Source: a virus (lineage: Duplodnaviria > Heunggongvirae > Uroviricota > Caudoviricetes). Taken from it: a DNA stretch of 12,423 bases. The stretch spans positions 1-12,423 of the IMG/VR virus record IMGVR_UViG_2778261176_000013, one strand, 5' to 3'. The notes under the pieces are model-generated. The model saw nothing but the letters and a program-made list of their open reading frames with translations, was not told where the DNA came from and did no database searches. How positions within the stretch are numbered: the stretch's first letter is position 1; each line of letters begins with the position of its first letter. Shown here piece by piece: positions 1 through 12,423 of this stretch. Both the position numbers and the translations under genes were made by a program.

Positions 1-342
1 TTAGCCATTCTGATTTTCCTGCATCATGAGAAATACAATCATGGCGGCGCGGAGAGGTCTGGTATCAAATATTGGTCTTACGCCTTTTGCATCAACACAC
101 CATTCAGTTAACTGGTCTAAGATAGAAATCCTGTGTTTCTCAATAATCGGCCATGAGGCGCTAGGATCATTGCAGTAGTCAGGTAAAGGGTTTAATGGCT
201 CAAAAGTTGTATCAGTATTTCCGTAATACCATTTGTTGGTGTTATTCCCTGATGTTTCCGGTTTACATGCCCAAAGGCCTTTAAAAATTATGTCTCCTAC
301 CATTCTGTTAATTTCAAAATCACTTAACTGTGAATAGTCCAT
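1..342 (-). CDS. Hypothetical prophage protein (113 aa)
   Basis: ORF-track frame 1..345. ATG at 342..340 is preceded by AGGAGGTGA and overlaps the TGA stop of the upstream gene (TGATG). Stop TAA at 3..1. No family recognised. Confidence 0.6.
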
Positions 343-944
343 CACTTCACCTCCTGCGGCGGTTCTGGTAGAGGCATCCAGTGGGTTACGAGAACATATT
401 CGACATCACCCTCAGGACTGTCATAGAACAATCCAGAGTGGGATTCGTAGAATGCGATGTAACGCCACCCTGAATGAGTTTGAACAACAACTTCCTGCCC
501 GTCATCCGGCATTCGCTCACTACAGCTTATCCAACCATCCGGAGTTACCGGAGAGTTGCCCGATAGTTTGTTCAACTTGTAAGTCTGGCTTACAGGTTTG
601 GCACCATGAAGCATGGTGGCGCGGCAGGCGTTCCAGCCTTCATCAAAGCCGACTATGCCATTATTTAAAGACGGACGAGCATCTGGCACCACCGGCACTG
701 GCCTGGCTATATATAGCGGCTGAACATACCAGCCCTTTGATAACCAACTGTCAGCAATGTTTTTACTCCTCGTTATTGCCGGAATACCTAAGCCATTTTC
801 TGAATGCAGCCATGCCACCGGCTCCTCTTCTAGCGATGCCAGAGCAATTTCATAAGCCCGGCGCTCAATATTGTCTCGCACGTCCAGGCTGCCTATGCGT
901 TCTTTGATTTCTTTAATCATTTCTTTGTCGGTTAAAGTTGTCAT
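342..944 (-). CDS. DUF551-like prophage protein (200 aa)
   Basis: ATG at 944 with GAGGA 9 nt upstream. C-terminal motif [10 protein letters not shown] matches my recollection of the DUF551 signature; the family label is tentative. Confidence 0.7.
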
Positions 945-947
945 GTG

Positions 948-1235
948 TTAGTCCTCATCCACTTCAACGCCATCTTTCAGCGTGATGCCGTGCCAATCAT
1001 CAGCCCAACTGGTTAGCCCTGGCGCATCAATGCTAGGCATATAAACGCTTGCAGTGTGGTAGCCCTTATCGTTATCAATGCTGGCAACGTGCTCGCCGTT
1101 GTATGCGCTCAGCGTGTCCAGGACGCTATAAAACTTTCCTCCGGCTGCCCTGAAATCCTTTACAGCCTTCACAAGGCGATTCCACGCTTTTTCCTGTTCT
1201 GGCGTCAGGTCGATTAATTCCTGCAAAGTTGCCAT
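948..1235 (-). CDS. Hypothetical prophage protein (95 aa)
   Basis: Start trimmed to ATG at 1235, which has AAGGAGGG directly upstream and lies 1 nt after the TGA stop of the upstream gene (TGATATG). The ORF-track start at 1265 would overlap that gene. Confidence 0.6.
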   Translation of the reverse strand: MATLQELIDLTPEQEKAWNRLVKAVKDFRAAGGKFYSVLDTLSAYNGEHVASIDNDKGYHTASVYMPSIDAPGLTSWADDWHGITLKDGVEVDED

Positions 1236-1236
1236 A

Positions 1237-1965
1237 TCACCCTCCTTTGATGCCAATGCCAGCAAGCCAGTTTCTTATGCCGATATATTCAGCGTTCCTG
1301 AAACCGCCATTTACATATATAAATGGCAAGCGAAGATTGTGACCATTGGCTGCCAGGTAGTCTTTACAACCCTGTTCGGTGAAACAGCAGGTAACGAATT
1401 CATCAATATCTTTCACAGCAACGCGCCGCCATTTTTCTGGTGGTTCCCGAAAGTTTTCATGAAGTAGTTCGAGACGACGACTTTGGCGTTTATTGGCTTC
1501 ATTGCCATCTTCATCAACCCAGACAATCCTGTCATAGTCATAATCAGCATCAACAACGATTTCGCGCTTTTGATACACACAAAACATAGGGTCTGACGTT
1601 ATTCGATTATCCTGTGTTCGAATATTTTCACCGATGATGCCAAACGAATCTGGTGCAGATTTTGTCTTCAACTCTTCGATACGTTTGCTTTGAGCTTCCA
1701 GTTCATCAAGAAGCGCAAGCATGGTAGCCGGACTGGCTGCGGCGATGAATTCAGCATTTGCCTGCTGTTCCATTTGGAAATCTTCATCGAAACCGCTTTC
1801 AGGATGCGCTCCTTCAATTCTGCAAATGGGAATATATCCAGCAGCCTCGCGATGAATTAGCGCATCATCACCATCAAATCGGCCCTCTCCATATTCGAGC
1901 GACCATACACCACACGTTGCTTTCTCTGCCTTTTCACGCAGTGCCTGATAGTCAATCTTGCTCAC
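1237..1965 (-). CDS. ead/Ea22-like family protein (242 aa)
   Basis: Start trimmed to GTG at 1965, with AAGGAGGAAACC upstream and a GTGA overlap with the upstream stop. Protein begins SKIDYQALREKAEKA and contains LALLDELEAQSKRIEELK, which resembles Ea22-type prophage proteins as I recall them. Confidence 0.65.
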   Translation of the reverse strand: MSKIDYQALREKAEKATCGVWSLEYGEGRFDGDDALIHREAAGYIPICRIEGAHPESGFDEDFQMEQQANAEFIAAASPATMLALLDELEAQSKRIEELKTKSAPDSFGIIGENIRTQDNRITSDPMFCVYQKREIVVDADYDYDRIVWVDEDGNEANKRQSRRLELLHENFREPPEKWRRVAVKDIDEFVTCCFTEQGCKDYLAANGHNLRLPFIYVNGGFRNAEYIGIRNWLAGIGIKGG

Positions 1966-2621
1966 TGGTTTCCTCCTTTGCGAAGCTGTTCCGCACAATC
2001 CAGCAGGGCGTCCGTCGCTTCTTTCACCGTAACGATGTCGCCATCGTCCAGCCCGACAACCGTCGCGTTCTTAACGAACACCGAGCAAAGGTCATTAAAC
2101 GCCTGCGCCCGCACTTCAGCCAGGCATTTGCGAAACTCGGAAACGTACTGTTCGACGCTCATTCCCCAGCTAAGTGGACATTCATTGAATGTTTCGCCTT
2201 CGTGCTCTTCATCAGGTAGCTCTTTGGTAAAGAACTCACGTTCAATGGCGTGGAGTGTGTCAGCAAAACGACGTAAGTTACTCAAACCTGTCGTAATGGA
2301 GAATTCAGGAGCATCACATCCGACGCCCATCTGCTGATAAACGGCGGTTTTGAAGGCCTTCAGCCCCGCATTCTCCGCCGCCAACGCCGAAAACTTCTCG
2401 TGTGCCAACTTAACAGCCGCATCAGCCTGCTTAATTGACTCAATCGCTTTCTGCTGGTCTTCGGCCAGCGCATTAGCACGCACCAGTTGCACTTCCAGTT
2501 GCGTTGCCAAATCGCTGATCAGCTTTGCCACACTGCGCATATCAACGGCACCACATTCTGCTTTCAGTTCCGAAGCCATCTCATGCCCGGCGGCAACTAA
2601 CCCTTTGATATTACTTTCCAT
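1962..2621 (-). CDS. Hypothetical coiled-coil prophage protein (219 aa)
   Basis: ATG at 2621 with GAGGGT 5-6 nt upstream. N-terminal half is Ala/Glu/Lys/Gln-rich (coiled-coil-like). Stop overlaps the start of the Ea22-like gene (translational coupling). Confidence 0.65.
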   Translation of the reverse strand: MESNIKGLVAAGHEMASELKAECGAVDMRSVAKLISDLATQLEVQLVRANALAEDQQKAIESIKQADAAVKLAHEKFSALAAENAGLKAFKTAVYQQMGVGCDAPEFSITTGLSNLRRFADTLHAIEREFFTKELPDEEHEGETFNECPLSWGMSVEQYVSEFRKCLAEVRAQAFNDLCSVFVKNATVVGLDDGDIVTVKEATDALLDCAEQLRKGGNQ

Positions 2622-2682
2622 CTTTACCCTCGCTTATCCACATAACTTATTGATTACATTGATAACTAAAAAGATCGTCGAT

Positions 2683-3027
2683 TCAGAACTCTTCGATGTT
2701 CCAGCCACCACCTGTTTTCTTTGGTTTAACCGTTACCCCGATGATTCGGAACGGATACTGATCTGCGGCGACTTTGGTTTTCACCCTGGCGTCGTCGGTC
2801 CAGAAACCTTTCACTTCGTGCAGTTCCATCTCTCCGGTGGCGAGCATCACAGCGAAATCTGGCGTATAGAACGTGTTGTCAGCTAACCGCAGCTTGATAC
2901 CCTCGAATCGATACCAGGCGATTTCCCCTGCACGTTTACGCAGCTCAAGGTGCTGGCAATACGCAGATTCAGTTTTGTTCATCTGGCCTGTTTTGAGTCG
3001 ACCAAGAGCCTGTATCTGTTTTCTCAT
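2683..3027 (-). CDS. DUF1064-like protein with PD-(D/E)xK-type motif (114 aa)
   Basis: ATG at 3027 with GAGGT upstream. Contains YTPDF...ELHEVKG, a PD-x(n)-ExK arrangement typical of restriction-endonuclease-fold nucleases. DUF1064 assignment is from memory. Confidence 0.65.
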   Translation of the reverse strand: MRKQIQALGRLKTGQMNKTESAYCQHLELRKRAGEIAWYRFEGIKLRLADNTFYTPDFAVMLATGEMELHEVKGFWTDDARVKTKVAADQYPFRIIGVTVKPKKTGGGWNIEEF

Positions 3028-3115
3028 GATTTACCTCTGAGGTAATTAAAAACCACATAAGACATGAAATCAATAGAGTTTATAATATTTTGTTACCTAA
3101 CAGGTAATTATCGAG
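3028..3115 (-). promoter_or_regulatory. Second PL-like promoter-operator cassette between the P-like and DUF1064-like genes
   Basis: Minus-strand reading: operator B (3093-3107), 19-bp gap, -35 TTGATT (3073..3068), 17-bp spacer, -10 TTTAAT (3050..3045), operator A (3031-3045) overlapping the -10 and the SD of the gene starting at 3027. Shares CTATTGA and ATTACCTCA with the PL-like region. Confidence 0.5.
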
Positions 3116-3119
3116 GCGT

Positions 3120-3139
3120 AAAAAAATGCGCTATCGCGC
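3120..3139 (-). terminator. Weak tR2-like intrinsic terminator immediately after the P-like gene
   Basis: On the minus strand GCGC-GATA-GCGC, then A, then T7. The stem is only 4 bp. Confidence 0.4.
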
Positions 3140-3144
3140 TGGTA

Positions 3145-3921
3145 TTACTTGATAAATCCTGCCGCCTTTCCCCGCCTGTATTCCTCCATCAGCCACTGCG
3201 CCGGTGTTATTCCCCCAAGGGTGGCGGCGTTAGGCATGCACCCGAAACTTCGCCCTGGTGGATGGTAAACGTCTCTCCCTGTGTCCGGAGGTGTACTCAT
3301 GGGCTCTGGCTTTGCCTGTATGCTGATCACCGGATCGGGTATCTGCTGTCCGGAAGCCACCTTTTTCGCCCAATCATCGAGCAGCCTGCGCGCGTGTTTC
3401 TCAACCTCAATCTCGCTAAGCTGGCGCTGATACATTGCACGGCGGGTATCACATACGACCCAGTACATAACCGGATGTCGCCACGGGAATCTTTCGGGAC
3501 CACCAGGATATAAACTTTTTTCCTTGCTGTACCGGTGAAACTCCGCCATCACATCGTCAATGGTGACGCCAAGAACCATCTTGCTGTCTTTGCACCACTT
3601 GATGAATTGCCCAGGCGACGGCCAGAACGGAGATTCACTGGCGCGGGCGTGGCGCATACCAGCGTTAACCTGTTCCATTGTTGTGATCCCATTCTCCAGA
3701 AACGCAAGCATCCATTGCTTACGGAATTCATTAAGTTTGTTCTGCTCCCTTATGGTCGAAACGCTTGCAGGAAATGCAGCCTGTAACTGGACAAATAGTT
3801 CATTGAAAATTCTAGCAACCTGCTCCTTTTTGCCATTGCTGTCACGCCGCTCTTCATGCACAGCAACACCATGCTCACGTAAGCGATCGTACTCATTGAG
3901 AAGTTCTGGAGTTGATTTCAT
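3145..3921 (-). CDS. Replication protein P-like (DnaB helicase loader)
   Basis: [44 protein letters not shown] closely parallels the lambda P segment [23 protein letters not shown]...PFLPSPGQFVAWC as I recall it. Start overlaps the end of the O-like gene, as in lambda. Confidence 0.85.
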
Positions 3922-4723
3922 CCCACACCCCTTCTATCCAGTCAGTGTTATTCCAGTCAAGCTCATCGCTTTTCCCGGCGTTTTTTGATTTTCCCCTGAT
4001 ATGATTTACGTGCCTGGCGAATTTTTGTTCCCACTGAACCTGCGTGAACACTTTGCCCTCAGCCATCCAGTAATCCCGGAATGCAGCAAGTTCAGCAGGT
4101 GTAAATTCCGGTTCCGGCAGGGCCGTTCCCCACAGCGCAGCACGCCGTCGAAAATCCGGCGACGGATGCCAGCCATCGGTCATCGGAAATTTCCCAATAG
4201 GTTCACTCAGGCCATCCAGAAATGCAGGTTCTGCCACCTGCAACGGCGTACCGTTCGCTTCACTGGTCGGATCACTCTCGCGCGCGTGCGCTATGTGTGG
4301 GGTTTTATATATATCTTCCTCTTCCTCTTCCTCTGGTAACTCCTTTTGTAACGCTGTTGGCGTTACTTTTTGCGTTACTCGTTTTCGATGCTCTGCCACT
4401 CTTCTATTCGTAAGTGCACGTTTTTTCGATGATTCTCCATTATGTCGCTCAAAGTTTGGAAGAATTAGTTTGCCGTCATGATAAGCAAGCCATCCGACGC
4501 TAATGAGGGCGTCAGCAAATCCTGTAATAAAAGCGAGTCTATCAAGTACTCCTTTTGTAACGCTGCCAGCGTTACCGTCTATTGTTTGCTGGTCAGCCCA
4601 TGCCCATATACGAACCAGCTTTCCAAGAACAGCATCTGGATCAATACCCAGAATTTCTGCTATCTGAAAAATTTCAGGTTTATCAGGAGTGATAACTTCA
4701 ACCTTAATCCAGCTGCTTGCCAT
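3893..4723 (-). CDS. Replication initiator / replisome organiser (O-like)
   Basis: Sits immediately upstream of and overlapping the P-like gene. Start trimmed to ATG at 4723 (AGAGGGGAAA SD); the ORF-track GTG at 4741 is less likely. Has an acidic linker (EEEEEED) and contains palindromic iteron-like DNA repeats. Confidence 0.75.
4341..4383. repeat. Iteron-like palindrome cluster inside the O-like gene (candidate origin element)
   Basis: CTCCTTTTGTAACGCTG-TTG-GCGTTAC, then TTTTT-GCGTTAC. Palindrome GTAACGC/GCGTTAC at 4348-4366 plus a third half-site at 4372-4378. Adjacent to (CG)4 at 4281-4288, AT-rich TTTTATATATAT at 4303-4314 and a (CTTCCT)3 repeat. Confidence 0.5.
4560..4585. repeat. Second copy of the iteron-like element inside the O-like gene
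   Basis: TCCTTTTGTAACGCTG-C-CAGCGTTAC; 19-bp perfect palindrome at 4567-4585. The shared 17-nt left arm is identical to the copy at 4341, but the two copies fall in different reading frames of the O-like ORF. Confidence 0.5.
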
Positions 4724-4916
4724 AGGTTTCCCCTCTTGCACTCTTTAGTGCACAAGCAAATTCATTACGATGGCGGTTGGCGCTATTCATTGCACATTCA
4801 ACACATGTTCCGTTCAGAACATACCTTTCAGAGAGATGGCCGTGACGGCACCGCTTTCCTGTGAAATAGCGATTTAACCCGGCTTTTGCGGCCTCCATTC
4901 TGGTTACTATCTTCAA
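4704..4916 (-). CDS. Small zinc-ribbon protein in the cII position (64-70 aa)
   Basis: Cys/His cluster CRHGH...CVEC. Lies between the cro-like and O-like genes. Start is ambiguous: TTG at 4916 (AAGGGG upstream) or ATG at 4898. Overlaps the O-like start by about 20 nt in another frame. Confidence 0.45.
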
Positions 4917-4994: not shown

Positions 4995-5009
4995 TTACCT
5001 TTGAGGTAC
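4995..5009. promoter_or_regulatory. Isolated operator-family site downstream of the cro-like gene
   Basis: TTACC-TTTGA-GGTAC (9/10 half-site match). Preceded on the minus strand by CATATCTATT, the same 10-mer found upstream of the PL-like -35. Confidence 0.4.
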
Positions 5010-5019
5010 GAATAGATAT

Positions 5020-5043
5020 GAAAAGACCGCCGGGTGGCGGTCT
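5020..5043 (-). terminator. tR1-like hairpin between the cro-like gene and the cII-position ORF
   Basis: Perfect 8-bp stem AGACCGCC / GGCGGTCT with a 4-nt loop, followed on the minus strand by TTTT then CATATCTATT. Confidence 0.55.
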
Positions 5044-5449: not shown

Positions 5450-6034
5450 ATGAAAAGTATCCAGGACGTCCGCAGGCAAAATCTCAACGACTTGATCGAC
5501 CGTGAATTCAATGGTGTTCAGACGCGGATGGCAGAAAAACTTGGAACTCAGGCAAATCTGGTAAACCGCTGGGCTCTTGGCAAGAAGGTTATCGGCGACC
5601 AGGTTGCGCGAAAAATTGAAGCTGCCGCCAATAAACCACGTAACTGGCTTGATATCGATCGCTCGCTTTCTCAGGAAGGTTTTCAGCCTGTCGGCCCAAG
5701 CGACATTGGTCAGCTGGCGGCTCACAACCTGGAACGCTGGATGAGCGAAAGCCGCGACCTTTCAACTCAGGGAAAACTTCACCGCGCATCCGGCGTCGCC
5801 CAGGTGACAATCAGCCGCCTGTTAAACAATGAGGTCAGTGTTTCCATTTCCACCCTGGAGAATGTTGCATCAGCATTCGGGCGTCACGGCTATGAATTAC
5901 TGATTCACCCGCACGACCCTGCGACCATCAACTATGACCGCTCGCGCTACGCATTGTTACCCGAAACCGAGAAAGCAAAGATCGAAAGTTACATTGAATT
6001 TGTCATCAACCAGAACGAAAAAAACAAACAATAA
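5450..6034 (+). CDS. CI-like immunity repressor with two HTH domains and no S24 peptidase domain (194 aa)
   Basis: Two XRE-type HTH segments (GVQTRMAEKLGTQANLVNRW and ASGVAQVTISRLLNNEVSVSISTLENVASAF). No Ser/Lys autopeptidase region recognisable. Divergent from cro across an operator-rich intergenic region and followed by a strong intrinsic terminator. Confidence 0.7.
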   Translation: MKSIQDVRRQNLNDLIDREFNGVQTRMAEKLGTQANLVNRWALGKKVIGDQVARKIEAAANKPRNWLDIDRSLSQEGFQPVGPSDIGQLAAHNLERWMSESRDLSTQGKLHRASGVAQVTISRLLNNEVSVSISTLENVASAFGRHGYELLIHPHDPATINYDRSRYALLPETEKAKIESYIEFVINQNEKNKQ

Positions 6035-6084: not shown

Positions 6085-6187
6085 TATACTATTACCTAAT
6101 GGGTAATTTTTTTAACTCATATCTATTGACACCAAACCAAATACGCATAATTATTACCTCAACGGTAACAGACCGAGGTAACAAGTT
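6085..6187 (+). promoter_or_regulatory. PL-like early promoter flanked by two perfect operators
   Basis: -35 TTGACA at 6126-6131, with a -10-like CATAATTA at 6146-6153. Operator G (6092-6106) lies 19 bp upstream of -35; operator H (6154-6168) abuts the -10 and covers the likely start site. Confidence 0.6.
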
Positions 6188-6342: not shown

Positions 6343-6642
6343 ATGAACGTTAATCAGCAGAAAAATCTTCAAAAAATCATGCTGGCATTCGACAAGGACT
6401 ACCGCCTGTCAGAACAGCTATATGACCGACAAGTTGAACTGATCGAGAGCATCCGGCTTCATCAACTAGCCTCAACTTTCGACGCTGTAACAGGTAAAGG
6501 CGTTCGCCAGGAAGTACTGGAGGCCGCTAAAGACAGTCCAGAGTTCGAAGAACTGATGGATTCCTACCGGCGCGAGGCAATGGCAATTATCGCCCGCTGG
6601 GATCTGGCGGATCAGCTTGATGGACAGAGGGACGCGGCATGA
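6343..6642 (+). CDS. Hypothetical protein (99 aa) in the Gam/RacC position upstream of the exonuclease
   Basis: ATG at 6343 preceded by GGGAGGG. Stop overlaps the exonuclease start (ATGA). No family recognised. Confidence 0.6.
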   Translation: MNVNQQKNLQKIMLAFDKDYRLSEQLYDRQVELIESIRLHQLASTFDAVTGKGVRQEVLEAAKDSPEFEELMDSYRREAMAIIARWDLADQLDGQRDAA

Positions 6643-7538
6643 TGCGGAACGCTGGAATCATGGATAGAACAAAATACATCGGAGGAAGCGATGTTGCAGG
6701 GATTCTTGGAATTAGCCCATGGCGCACCCCGCTTGAGGTTTATCTGGATAAGGTCCAGCCACGTGTCAAACCAGTAGACCCAAGCAAGCAGAAAGTTTTC
6801 ACGCGTGGCCAGCGTATGGAGCCATACGTAATAGACCTGCTTTCTGAGGAAACAGGGATGGAAATCGTTCATCGCGGAAACCGCTATATCCACCGTGATT
6901 ACGATTTTATTGCAGCTGAGATCGATGCAGAAGCAGCGTCAGGCGAGAACATTGAGATCAAAACAGTTAGTCCGTTCAAAGCCAAAGAATGGGGAGAAAT
7001 CCAGACAGATGCAATTCCTGTGCATTACACGGCCCAGGCCATGCACGGGTTGATGGTTACAAACAAACAGGTATGCGTTTTCGGTGTGCTTATCGGTGGC
7101 GACGACTTCCGAATCTATCGGGTTGAGCGTGATGAAGAAACTATCCAGGCGATCTTAGAAAAAGAAATCGCTTTCTGGGACCGAGTGAAAAATCTTAACC
7201 CGCCGGAAGCTACCAGCGTAAGCGATGTATCGCTGATGTTTGAGAAAGATGCCGGGACAAGTATCGAGGCTGACGGAAAGGCACTCTCACTATTCAACGA
7301 TCTACGAGACATGAAGTCACGCAGAAAATTACTGGAAGAAGAAATAGCTATATCAGAAGAGAAGCTGAAGATGTACATGCAAGAGCACTCAGTCCTGACC
7401 CTAGACGGAAAGCCGCTCTGCACATGGAAATCTCAGATCAGCAACAGATTCGACCAGAAGCTATTCCAGTCAGTACACCCTGAGTTATTCGAAAAATTCA
7501 AAACAACAACGACACAACGCGTCTTCAGAATGAAGTAA
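6639..7538 (+). CDS. YqaJ-type phage exonuclease (RecE/Red-alpha functional analogue)
   Basis: N-terminal KYIGGSDVAGILGISPWRTPLEVY is the hallmark of YqaJ-like viral recombinase exonucleases. Immediately upstream of recT. Confidence 0.85.
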   Translation: MMRNAGIMDRTKYIGGSDVAGILGISPWRTPLEVYLDKVQPRVKPVDPSKQKVFTRGQRMEPYVIDLLSEETGMEIVHRGNRYIHRDYDFIAAEIDAEAASGENIEIKTVSPFKAKEWGEIQTDAIPVHYTAQAMHGLMVTNKQVCVFGVLIGGDDFRIYRVERDEETIQAILEKEIAFWDRVKNLNPPEATSVSDVSLMFEKDAGTSIEADGKALSLFNDLRDMKSRRKLLEEEIAISEEKLKMYMQEHSVLTLDGKPLCTWKSQISNRFDQKLFQSVHPELFEKFKTTTTQRVFRMK

Positions 7539-7547
7539 GGAGAAAAA

Positions 7548-8570
7548 ATGTCTATCAATGCACTTAAGGCAGCAGCTACCGGTAACCAAGTTGCACATCA
7601 TAATGAGAAACCAACAACTCTGGCCGGACTTCTGGCAGACCCAAAAATTAAAGCTCAGATGGCTTTGGCACTTCCAAAGCACATGACAGCAGACCGTCTG
7701 GCGCGCATAGCAACCACAGAGATCCGAAAGGTTCCAAAACTTGCATCATGCGACCAAGCCAGCTTCCTGGGGGCAATTATGCAATGTGCCCAATTGGGTC
7801 TTGAACCAGGCGGAGCTCTTGGACACGCTTACCTGATACCGTTCGACAAACGCCAGAAAGTAAATGGAAGATGGGAAACCGTATCTACAGAAGCACAGCT
7901 GATTATCGGCTATCGCGGAATGATTGACCTTGCCCGCCGCTCTGGGCAGATCCTGAGTATCTCAGCTCGTACCGTACATACAAACGACAAATTCAGCTAC
8001 TCATACGGCATGGAAGAAACGCTCGAGCATTTACCTTGCGAAACAGGTGACCGCGGAGAATTAACACACGTTTACGCCGTTGCACGACTGAAAGATGGCG
8101 GAGTCCAATTTGAAGTTATGAGCCGGGCAGCCGTTGAGAAAGTTCGTGCACTGAGCAAAGCCGGTAGCAGTGGCCCATGGGTTGATCACTTCGATGAGAT
8201 GGCTAAAAAAACAGTAATTCGCCGACTGTTCAAATATCTTCCTGTTTCTATTGAAATGCAGAAGGCTGTTGTTATGGATGAGCGCGCTGAAGCTGGACTT
8301 AGCCAAGATAACGCAGCTGTTATCACTGGTGAATATTCCGTAGTTGACGATGAGCGTCAACACCTATCGCCAATTTCAGATTCAGAACGAGAAGAAGCTC
8401 GAGAATATATCATCGCGATACTTAATAGCCTGGATCCATCTGCTGAAGATGCAAAAACGATGTTCAAGCGCGCTGAAAATGAAATTAACACCATGGCTGA
8501 AAAGCTCGGTGATGAATATCACCAAAAATTCATGATGACGCTTAACGATATGCGTCCAGAATTCGAGTAA
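7548..8570 (+). CDS. recT: RecT single-strand annealing recombinase
   Basis: AAGGAG SD. Long stretches match Rac RecT as I recall it: LPKHMTADRLARIATTEIRKVPKL, QLIIGYRGMIDLARRSGQI, THVYAVARLKDGG.QFEVM, EMAKKT.IRRLFKYLPVSIE. Confidence 0.92.
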   Translation: MSINALKAAATGNQVAHHNEKPTTLAGLLADPKIKAQMALALPKHMTADRLARIATTEIRKVPKLASCDQASFLGAIMQCAQLGLEPGGALGHAYLIPFDKRQKVNGRWETVSTEAQLIIGYRGMIDLARRSGQILSISARTVHTNDKFSYSYGMEETLEHLPCETGDRGELTHVYAVARLKDGGVQFEVMSRAAVEKVRALSKAGSSGPWVDHFDEMAKKTVIRRLFKYLPVSIEMQKAVVMDERAEAGLSQDNAAVITGEYSVVDDERQHLSPISDSEREEAREYIIAILNSLDPSAEDAKTMFKRAENEINTMAEKLGDEYHQKFMMTLNDMRPEFE

Positions 8571-10489: not shown

Positions 10490-11140
10490 ATGACCAGTCA
10501 ACTCATCCCCGTATTCAACGGCACTATATCCAACGAAACCGCTCTTCTCGTTAATGCCCGTGATTTACACACTTTCCTCGATGTGGGTAAGCGATTTGCT
10601 TCGTGGATTGTCGAACGAATTGCTGAATATGGTTTCGTTGAAAATCAAGACTTTATGATTATTTCCCAAGTTCGGGAAAAAATAGGCAGAGGCCGTCCTG
10701 CAAAAGACTACCACCTCACCCTCGATACAGCCAAAGAGCTGGCGATGGTCGAGCGTAATGAAAAAGGTCGTCAGGTACGACGCTACTTCATTGAATGCGA
10801 GAAACGTTTAAGACAACAAGAAACAAAAGTGGAGAAGGTCTTGTCAGGCTTCATGCCCGCCATTATGGAGGCGATCAAGCTGGAAGACAAAAAAGAATAC
10901 AGTGCCCCACTGAAGCCCGGCTACCGCAGCCTGATTCACTCGCCGTCTGGTGTTCTCGGCCTGACGGAGAACTCACTGCTGATGAATCTGCTGAACCAGT
11001 TACAGGAAGACGGGCACGACGTATCGGGTGCGGCGGCGGAGCTGACCACCATGTTCTGCTACATCGTCGGTGTGAGCAAATGCCTGCGTGATATCCAGAC
11101 CCACGCGGAGTACATCAACGACAAGGCAGGGTTCTTCTGA
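10490..11140 (+). CDS. Phage antirepressor, AntA/AntB N-terminal domain type (216 aa)
   Basis: AGGAGG 7 nt upstream of ATG. N-terminal region (LIPVFNGT...ARDLHTFLDVGKRFASWIVERIAEYGFVENQDF...KDYHLTLDTAKELAMVERNEKGRQVRRYF) matches AntA/AntB antirepressor domains as I recall them. Confidence 0.75.
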   Translation: MTSQLIPVFNGTISNETALLVNARDLHTFLDVGKRFASWIVERIAEYGFVENQDFMIISQVREKIGRGRPAKDYHLTLDTAKELAMVERNEKGRQVRRYFIECEKRLRQQETKVEKVLSGFMPAIMEAIKLEDKKEYSAPLKPGYRSLIHSPSGVLGLTENSLLMNLLNQLQEDGHDVSGAAAELTTMFCYIVGVSKCLRDIQTHAEYINDKAGFF

Positions 11141-11172: not shown

Positions 11173-12423
11173 TTATTCCCCCGCCATCCACTTCTCAAAC
11201 TTCGACGGGGAGAACGGAATCAGATCCGTATGCTCCCCGTCAATCCATGAATCAATCATATCGGCCCACTGCTGCAACATGTAGGCGCGCTGTCTGGCGT
11301 ATTCCGCTTTGTTGTATACGGCGCGCACACCTTTCTGCTCATGTGCCAGAGCCTTTTCAATCCAGTCTGAAGGATAACCAGCCTCATGCAACAACGTACT
11401 GGCTGTACGGCGCATATCATGTACAGTGAAGTCCTGAATATGCTCACCATCTTCATTTATTATTTTCACCGTTCTGTCGATCAGAGAGTTCAGCGCGGCA
11501 TTAGATAATGGCTTCCGGAAATTGTAACGACCAGGAACCAGATATTCACTTCCACCAGCGCACATCTGCAACCCGACCAATATATCCTGTGCCTGTTTAG
11601 GCAGGTAAATAACGTGCGCCCGGCTTCCCTTCATGCGGTCTGGAGGAATTGTCCATGTCCATTTTTTAAAATCTATTTCATCCCACGTTGCATTGGTGAA
11701 TTCGCCCTTACGAACCATAGTGATAAGCACCAGTTTTAAAGCCATTTTCATAGTGCCCATAGCACCAATGGCATCCAGCGTGCGGAAGAACAGGCCAATT
11801 TCTTCTGGTGTCAGTGTTCGCTCTCGTGGTTTAAATATGGCGATAGACGAAGGTTTAATGTCAGCCGCAGGATTAAACAAACCATGACCACGGTCATTGG
11901 CGTGACGGTATACGCTACTGATGATCTCCCTGGCCTGCACTGCTGTTGCCCGGCCACCGCGTTCGACAATCCGGTCACACAAATCACGAACCATCGATGT
12001 GGTAATTTCAGCCATCATTTTATTGCCAAGAACCGGAAGTATGTCACGGTCGATCACCGCCTGTTTCATTGCGCGGGTACTGTCAGCCAGGATGACGTGT
12101 TTCATATAACTGTCGGTATGTACCGCAAACGTCTCGGCACCACGAATCTTTTTGATACCGTCACGTTTAGCCGCAGCCGGTGACTGGCCTGCTTTAAGCA
12201 GCTTCTTTGCAGCAATCAGTTCTTCTCGCGCTTCTGCCAGGCTGATACCGTCACGCCCATACTGCCCGATTACCAGTGTTTCGCGGCGACCGTTGATACG
12301 GTAGTCATAGCGAAACGAGACCGTGCCTGACGTAAGCACAGCTACATACAGCCCGTCACGATCGGAGACCTTGTACAGTTTGTCCTGCGGCTTGAGGTTT
12401 TTTAATTTTGTATCGGTAAGCAC
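11173..12423 (-). CDS. Tyrosine integrase, P4-type (N-terminus truncated by window edge)
   Basis: N-terminal LTDTKLKNLKP...YKVSDRDGLYVAVLTSGTVSFRYDYRINGRRETL is typical of P4-like integrases. C-terminal catalytic region has HDMRRT and AHEQKGVRAVYNKAEY (conserved Tyr). The ORF runs to the last base of the window. Confidence 0.9.
   Translation of the reverse strand: MLTDTKLKNLKPQDKLYKVSDRDGLYVAVLTSGTVSFRYDYRINGRRETLVIGQYGRDGISLAEAREELIAAKKLLKAGQSPAAAKRDGIKKIRGAETFAVHTDSYMKHVILADSTRAMKQAVIDRDILPVLGNKMMAEITTSMVRDLCDRIVERGGRATAVQAREIISSVYRHANDRGHGLFNPAADIKPSSIAIFKPRERTLTPEEIGLFFRTLDAIGAMGTMKMALKLVLITMVRKGEFTNATWDEIDFKKWTWTIPPDRMKGSRAHVIYLPKQAQDILVGLQMCAGGSEYLVPGRYNFRKPLSNAALNSLIDRTVKIINEDGEHIQDFTVHDMRRTASTLLHEAGYPSDWIEKALAHEQKGVRAVYNKAEYARQRAYMLQQWADMIDSWIDGEHTDLIPFSPSKFEKWMAGE

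Follow-up and report, generated by a model that had tools for sequence, protein, structure and literature searches.

We analyzed three genes on the minus strand between positions 1237 and 3027 of a 12,423-nt DNA stretch from a tailed virus (Caudoviricetes; IMG/VR record IMGVR_UViG_2778261176_000013); the whole stretch is referred to as the window. Our results make it fairly probable that these genes open an early lytic operon under repressor control, in which the first gene encodes a junction or branch nuclease similar to T7 endonuclease I and is followed by shuffled accessory genes of the "ea" type. In the window we recognize the early region of a phiV10/epsilon15-type temperate phage (Uetakevirus), present as a prophage of E. 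coli. A first-pass annotation made from the sequence had speculated that a nuclease-fold protein and two coupled partners under separate repressor control might constitute a defence or superinfection-exclusion module.

The three open reading frames (ORFs) described in that annotation were confirmed, and the identities given to their products, a DUF1064 protein of the PD-(D/E)XK fold, a probable coiled-coil protein, and an Ead/Ea22-like protein, proved right. The DUF1064 gene (2683-3027, minus strand) encodes 114 aa and matches Pfam DUF1064 (PF06356, E=3.5e-7). The Eae-like gene (1962-2621, minus strand) encodes 219 aa, which belong to no Pfam family and matched several PHROGs of unknown function. 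The Ead/Ea22-like gene (1237-1965, minus strand) encodes 242 aa and matches Pfam Ead_Ea22 (PF13935, E=4e-23). The mechanical ORF list runs the last gene out to a TTG (253 aa), but we prefer the GTG at 1965-1963 as its start, since homologues begin with MSKIDYQ and one of them is 242 aa long at 99% identity. This GTG overlaps the upstream TGA as GTGA, so the stop/start overlap reported between the 219-aa and 242-aa genes is real, and it lies 6 nt past the Shine-Dalgarno sequence AAAGGAGG. When all six proteins of the operon were compared with NCBIfam, only noise was obtained.

The DUF1064 protein as a putative branched-DNA nuclease

The 114-aa protein scored 31.1 bits against Pfam DUF1064 (gathering cutoff, 24.7), and thousands of its relatives are labelled DUF1064. 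It matched PHROG 190, which carries the label Holliday junction resolvase, at E=5e-43. Fold recognition placed DUF1064 in the PD-(D/E)XK superfamily near families modelled on T7 endonuclease I, and DUF1064 is found together with RecT, DnaC, DnaB, and SSB (PMC1189080, PMC3424549). When the PDB sequences were searched with the single protein or with a 13-sequence profile, the top matches were T7 endonuclease I in both cases (four distinct sequences, E=0.1-1). The alignments set YTPDF and hEvKG of the DUF1064 protein on YTPDF and vEtKG of the T7 enzyme. Since the entry 1FZR, an E65K mutant, puts E71 on the catalytic E65 of T7 endonuclease I, D57 and K73 fall on the other catalytic residues, D55 and K67. 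Comparison of a DUF1064 alignment with T7 gene 3 by hhalign gave a probability of 94% with 42% identity over 43 columns spanning D55/E65/K67, for which the E-value is a pairwise one. Within the 13-sequence alignment, which extends down to 46% identity and covers phages of E. coli to those of Vibrio and Klebsiella, E20, D57, and K73 are invariant, and position 71 is Glu in all sequences except that of phage LASTA, which has Asp. E20, D57, E71, and K73 are thus candidate catalytic residues. DUF1064 homologues outside the Uetakevirus group were found in phages such as F116, Bcep176, Vibrio X29, Erwinia PEp14, and Klebsiella LASTA; one of these homologues is annotated as "endonuclease I-like".

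We propose that the 114-aa protein belongs to the PD-(D/E)XK nucleases, is a relative of T7 endonuclease I, and acts as a branched-DNA or Holliday-junction endonuclease. The resolvase-type role is suggested by the homology, by the position of the gene, and by the absence of another annotated resolvase; neither phiV10 nor a complete prophage annotated by the Prokaryotic Genome Annotation Pipeline (PGAP) has an annotated gene of the RusA, NinG/Rap, or RuvC type. The enzyme would cut Holliday junctions, forks, and branches arising from replication and from recombination by the YqaJ exonuclease and RecT, and removal of these branches would leave concatemers that can be packaged by the PacB-like terminase. 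It would thereby fill the resolvase slot, which is occupied by Rap/NinG or RusA in the lambda nin region and by gene 3 in T7.

Several observations weigh against this assignment. The similarity to T7 endonuclease I is non-significant in database searches (E about 0.1) and limited to 43-52 residues; hmmsearch of the PDB sequences with a more diverse DUF1064 profile still gave an E-value of about 0.1, and the protein did not match Pfam Phage_endo_I. The AlphaFold 2 (AF2) model, built from an alignment of 24 sequences that are all at least 79% identical, was poor, with a predicted local distance difference test (pLDDT) score of 54.9, and its confident portion is too small for comparison with the T7 enzyme. 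Its secondary-structure order, which is of low confidence, was helix 20-32, strands 36-40, 58-62, and 67-70, helix 79-90, and strand 96-100, in agreement with an alpha-beta-beta-beta-alpha-beta core. The best PDB matches of this model in Foldseek were the PD-(D/E)XK nucleases TT1808, DrdV, and Bax1, although none was significant (E>=0.3). Because the model was poor and Foldseek returned no significant match, the link to T7 endonuclease I derives from sequence and profile evidence. Our literature search found no biochemically characterised DUF1064 protein, so that "resolvase" is a label and not a result. In Vibrio phage X29, DUF1064 is accompanied by a gene annotated as RusA-like, which indicates that the two need not be alternatives, and the absence of other resolvases is based on annotation in phages many of whose genes are called hypothetical.

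The conserved residues and the position of the gene also bear on whether the protein has another activity. It might degrade host DNA non-specifically for nucleotides, cleave at specific sites or as a homing enzyme, or bind DNA as a catalytically dead protein. PD-(D/E)XK folds serve many functions (PMC3424549), and the similarity to the T7 enzyme is confined to the catalytic core. The conserved E/D/E/K set, however, speaks against a dead enzyme, and the fixed syntenic position, with no sporadic insertion and no intein- or intron-like context, speaks against homing. T7 endonuclease I, the gene 3 product, also takes part in the breakdown of host DNA, but degradation of the host chromosome would be expected to harm lysogenisation, and temperate phages of such size are not known to degrade it. 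Taken together, a non-resolvase function appears rather improbable, and it is reasonable to annotate DUF1064 of this phage group as a branched-DNA nuclease that resembles T7 endonuclease I and takes the resolvase slot.

A predicted promoter between paired operators

The promoter cassette that the first-pass annotation had placed upstream of the DUF1064 gene is real. This regulatory cassette, designated P3, fills the 117-bp gap between the P-like and DUF1064 genes (3028..3144, minus strand). In the direction of transcription it consists of a weak terminator hairpin GCGCGATAGCGC (3139-3128) with a T-run (3126-3120), an upstream operator TTACCTGTTAGGTAA (3107-3093), the -35 hexamer TTGATT (3073-3068), a 17-nt spacer, the -10 hexamer TTTAAT (3050-3045), and a downstream operator TTACCTCAGAGGTAA (3045-3031), all on the minus strand; both hexamers were read from the sequence. 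The downstream operator contains the Shine-Dalgarno sequence AGAGG, overlaps both the -10 hexamer and the expected start site, and ends 3 nt short of the ATG at 3027. The hairpin is annotated as a terminator in the phiV10 record.

The operators follow the pattern TTACC-N5-GGTAA, a 15-bp palindrome, which was searched with at most one mismatch and matched the window 7 times versus 0.21 expected. Two matches are present in the gap between the cro-like and repressor genes (5332 and 5380), with a third, more degenerate copy visible between them in the alignment. Another two, 62 bp apart, lie downstream of the repressor gene (6092 and 6154) and bracket TTGACA-17-AATTAT, which is directed into the YqaJ/RecT operon. 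The two in the P/DUF1064 gap (3093-3107 and 3031-3045) are likewise 62 bp apart. A lone site with one mismatch, TTACCTTTGAGGTAC (4995-5009), falls between the cro-like gene and the gene that follows it, next to a terminator-like hairpin (5024-5043). This operator-like site is kept in phiV10 (L003 1463-1477) and in a related locus (L001 7905-7919).

When P3 was aligned with the cassette at 6092-6168, the same elements appeared in the same order: terminator hairpin and T-run, operator, CTATTGA (-35), 17 nt, an A/T-rich -10 element, and operator. P3 and the cassette driving the YqaJ/RecT (leftward early) operon are paralogues. Such paralogous pairs, with operators exactly 62 bp apart, were found at 304-380 and 3421-3497 in the phiV10 locus L003 and at 1055-1131 and 3421-3497 in locus L004, and are kept from E. 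coli phages to Salmonella phages. P3 itself is kept in phiV10, SPN1S, and two E. coli prophages, in which both operators and CTATTGA are invariant. The DUF1064 gene of a Klebsiella prophage is likewise closely preceded by this operator pair at a spacing of 62 bp. On the opposite side, a promoter consensus scan did not call P3, whose -10 hexamer is imperfect and lacks the A at position 2. A literature search for Uetakevirus operators found nothing specific.

The first-pass annotation had described the operon as being under separate repressor control. The promoter is indeed separate, but both of its operators share the TTACC-N5-GGTAA consensus with OR and OL, which points to the prophage's own repressor. 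We infer that P3 is a third early promoter of the sigma-70 type and a candidate target of this repressor. Since the promoter is flanked by two operators of the OR/OL type, the operon is probably silent in the lysogen. Judging from this anatomy, the third early transcription unit would be held off by the prophage repressor and would fire together with the other early operons upon infection or induction. For annotation, the useful point is a predicted third repressor-controlled promoter cassette that drives this operon and is a paralogue of the leftward early promoter.

Related prophages also have sites resembling TTACC-N5-GGTAA at the small terminase gene, either at its start or a short way upstream (L010 7324-7338 and 7405-7419; L001 2557-2589), in a region beyond the window. 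These sites hint at a fourth repressor-controlled promoter, which would serve the late genes.

Modular Eae-like and Ea22-like genes

The Eae-like protein has 6448 relatives, and among the matches listed most are named "eae-like domain protein". The alignment divides it into a constant N-terminus (1-54), an optional helical insert of 28 aa, a central domain (83-171), a hypervariable cassette (172-208), and the tail AEQLRKGGNQ. The cassette, of ~35 residues between AEVRAQ and AEQLRKGGNQ, occurs in at least 8 unrelated variants among close relatives; cassette and constant tail together (residues 172-219) are encoded at 1962-2105 on the minus strand. The codons of the tail (AAAGGAGGAAACCAGTGA) include the Shine-Dalgarno sequence of the following gene as well as its start. 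In a crude heptad test, support for a coiled coil in this 219-aa protein was marginal (about residues 24-95), since 6% of shuffled sequences reach the observed score. The in-register deletion of 28 residues (four heptads) in relatives fits a coiled coil.

The Ead_Ea22 match of the neighboring gene product scored 82.9 bits (cutoff, 27) and covers residues 13-113 of the 253-aa ORF, which correspond to residues 2-102 of the 242-aa protein. Its family is built from a constant leader, a variable N-domain with at least 4 variants, a constant helix NAEFIAAxxPATxLALLDELE, a coiled-coil insert, and a near-invariant C-terminal domain (104-242). The insert has 0, 28, 46, 56, or 74 residues across the variants and 0 in the window protein, and the crude heptad test did not support a coiled coil in this short 242-aa variant. 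PHROG profiles contain Eae and Ea22 modules fused in other combinations and orders.

The placement of Ea22-like genes after the replication genes had been taken as a sign of mosaic reassortment. Mosaicism is evident: window 901-1966, which comprises most of the Ea22-like gene, the 95-aa gene downstream of it, and part of the DUF551 gene, is 96.5% identical to exo-int early-left DNA of Shiga toxin (Stx) phages such as PA28. The placement itself is no oddity of the window, because ea-type genes after the replication genes are the standard layout of the phiV10/SPN1S/Klebsiella Uetakevirus-type group. Nor does lambda ea22 belong to the b region, as had been stated; PMC10834534 places it between exo and xis in the pL operon. 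Many records in the phage and complete E. coli genome collections match window 900-3200 piecewise, and none in these collections covers at least 80% of it.

The gene order was examined in relatives. An identical 4-nt overlap links a different upstream gene to an Ea22-like gene in NZ_CP033884, and the downstream genes of phiV10 are likewise chained through 4-nt overlaps. Since the overlap recurs whichever gene lies upstream, it is a generic coupling and recombination joint and not the sign of a dedicated pair; the GTGA together with the ...LRKGGNQ* tail would serve both translational coupling and recombination. Among Klebsiella prophages whose DUF1064 protein is identical, the genes downstream of it differ, so that the trio is not a conserved one. 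Because the downstream genes vary even where DUF1064 is identical, both the Eae-like and the Ea22-like gene are mosaic accessory genes of the P22/lambda "ea" pool and not partners of the nuclease.

These results bear directly on the proposal that the nuclease and its two partners form a prophage module attacking incoming phage DNA. The proposal could draw on the nuclease fold, the tightly packed genes of unknown function with their own promoter, and the label "putative restriction endonuclease" given to a DUF1064 homologue in the SPC32N phage record. However, none of the six operon proteins matched any model of PADLOC-DB v2 at E-values up to 0.1, and the trio is not conserved. The expected silence of the operon in the lysogen is the main anatomical argument against defence or exclusion, as a promoter between operators of the prophage-repressor type should be off just when defence is needed. 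DUF1064 is a fixed backbone gene of this phage type and is also present in outside phages such as LASTA and PEp14, whereas the superinfection-immunity gene of phiV10, oac (O-acetyltransferase), is located elsewhere in its genome. The first-pass annotation had itself named homology to a Holliday-junction resolvase as evidence that would speak against defence, and such homology was found as far as computation allows, in the PHROG 190 match and the alignment with the T7 endonuclease I core. We therefore consider a defence module very improbable, and a false lead is removed.

The C-terminal domain of the Ea22-like protein (139 residues, 104-242) is the only mildly novel point of the operon. A search of 1.84 billion cluster representatives yielded 1450 clusters at E<=1e-3, spanning phages of Gram-negative and Gram-positive hosts. 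The domain occurs C-terminally behind many different N-termini, alone (141-160 aa), or N-terminally, and is joined to DUF550 or DUF551 in some proteins. Conservation reaches 90% or more at about 25 positions, most of them polar residues or cysteine; in the numbering of the 242-aa protein, these include Q118 D119 N120 R121, C194, E197, C200, D202, H209 N210, R223 N224, E226, and R231. Such conservation hints at a site for binding or catalysis. When 41 diverse carriers were scanned with Pfam, no family covered the domain, a PDB sequence search with the 242-aa protein found nothing related, and a fold search of the domain detected no solved structural neighbor, the fold being shared only with uncharacterised phage proteins. 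As a widespread and confidently foldable domain without a known relative, it is a fair target for work on "ea" gene function.

As members of the shuffled "ea" pool, the Eae-like and Ea22-like proteins would combine a constant N-terminal and helical oligomerising scaffold with exchangeable C-terminal modules. Their most likely role, which we assign weakly from the analogy with lambda Ea22, is to bind host factors and adjust the course of infection. They might also be early counter-defence or host-takeover effectors whose mosaic diversity reflects an arms race, the nuclease remaining an enzyme of DNA metabolism. The early expression expected from a repressor-controlled promoter agrees with such effectors, as do the extreme shuffling of modules including the ~35-aa hypervariable cassette, the many N-termini and 1450 clusters of the C-terminal domain, its highly conserved residues, and its restriction to uncharacterised phage proteins. 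Our literature search for Ea22-like proteins in anti-defence found nothing specific, and we regard this explanation as unlikely. Similarly doubtful is the broader idea that the modular Ea proteins are a large system of early effectors, in which the constant N-terminal/coiled-coil scaffold carries exchangeable C-terminal modules and the domain at 104-242 is a new enzymatic or ligand-binding fold directed at a host factor, e.g., of the immune system.

Phage type and comparison with known systems

The operon continues beyond the Ea22-like gene with the 95-aa gene (948-1235, PHROG 2821), the DUF551 gene (342-944), and a NinX-like gene of the P22 type (1-345), which touches the left edge of the window; all are on the minus strand. 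This remainder (1..1235) is tightly packed, with a 1-nt gap, a 3-nt gap, and a 4-nt overlap. The operon is preceded by a DnaT-domain initiator (3893-4741, minus strand) and a lambda-P-like helicase loader (3145-3921, minus strand), and, with the NinX-like gene at 1-345, its description as lying in the nin position is a fair one. Farther upstream are the cro-like gene and a small gene (from 5295 leftwards, minus strand). The plus strand encodes a 194-aa helix-turn-helix (HTH) repressor (5450-6034), the YqaJ-type exonuclease and RecT (6639-8570), and AlpA, PerC, an MT-A70 methylase, and AntA, and the integrase gene (11173-12423, minus strand) reaches the right edge. The exonuclease and RecT are separate genes in the window, while the phiV10 record shows one fused "recET" in the same place (L009 29722-31482). 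The repressor has two HTH-like regions (Pfam matches at residues 21-61 and 104-147) and no peptidase domain. Since it lacks this domain and an AntA-type antirepressor gene is present (10490-11140), induction probably proceeds by antirepression and not by RecA-stimulated self-cleavage of the repressor. In a related complete prophage, genes for BRO-N and a YafO-family toxin form a moron-like insertion between the tail-spike and structural genes (L017 9167-10814).

The same backbone was found in phiV10, SPN1S, the E. coli prophages NZ_CP074830 and NZ_CP033884, and Klebsiella prophages. It consists of the repressor, cro, DnaT-domain, and P genes, a gap of ~120 bp, DUF1064, variable small genes (Eae-like, Ead/Ea22, DUF550, DUF551, and others), and the gene of the small terminase subunit. 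In SPN1S, a single "replication initiation protein" replaces the DnaT-domain gene and P, and short gut-metagenome contigs with a related gene have the same part from repressor to DnaT, lack P, and end just past DUF1064. The PGAP-annotated full relative is a Uetakevirus-type prophage of about 40 kb adjoining guaA. These genes, their families, and their order are already on record from phiV10, SPN1S, and enterobacterial prophages in the thousands and carry little weight as a discovery.

The closest systems are phiV10 p45-p55 and SPN1S_0047-0052, which resemble the window in backbone order, the terminator in the gap, the paired operators 62 bp apart, and a DUF1064 gene followed by an eae-like gene. 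For the DUF1064 protein, identity is 97% with phiV10 p45 and 94% with SPN1S_0047, whereas the Eae-like proteins of phiV10 and the window are only 54% identical, and phiV10 has a 74-aa gene and a DUF550 gene where the window has the 242-aa Ea22-like gene.

Lambda Ea22 and P22 EaD/EaE are encoded by early, repressor-controlled genes and share with the 242-aa protein the N-terminal Ead_Ea22 domain, followed by a coiled coil and a variable C-terminal domain. Ea22 of lambda and Stx phages, the sole experimental anchor of the family, is described in PMC7093339 and PMC10834534 as a protein that favours lysogeny and forms a tetramer of N-domain, coiled coil, and variable C-terminal domain; the lambda protein is a tetramer with a dimeric C-terminal domain (PMC10834534). 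The C-terminal domain of lambda Ea22, solved by nuclear magnetic resonance, is unrelated to that of the 242-aa protein. In the latter the coiled coil is nearly deleted, whereas the common relatives have 298 aa. The two genes also differ in location: unlike lambda ea22 in the pL operon, the window gene follows the replication genes in the P3 operon, although nearly identical DNA lies in the exo-int region of PA28.

Lambda Rap (NinG) and RusA occupy the same slot as DUF1064, in the early operon past the replication genes, and correspond to it in proposed job, alongside single-strand-annealing recombination of the phage. Their sequences are unrelated to DUF1064 and neither family appeared in the Pfam and PHROG results, so the analogy is one of position and function. 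T7 endonuclease I (gene 3; PDB 1M0D, 1FZR, 2PFJ) is a Holliday-junction resolvase of a different Pfam family, Phage_endo_I, and its similarity to the DUF1064 protein extends over only ~45 residues. Within this stretch the two share the PD-(D/E)XK core with the motif YTPDF...(V/h)E(T/v)KG, and, like the DUF1064 protein, the T7 enzyme is small and encoded by an early or middle phage gene.

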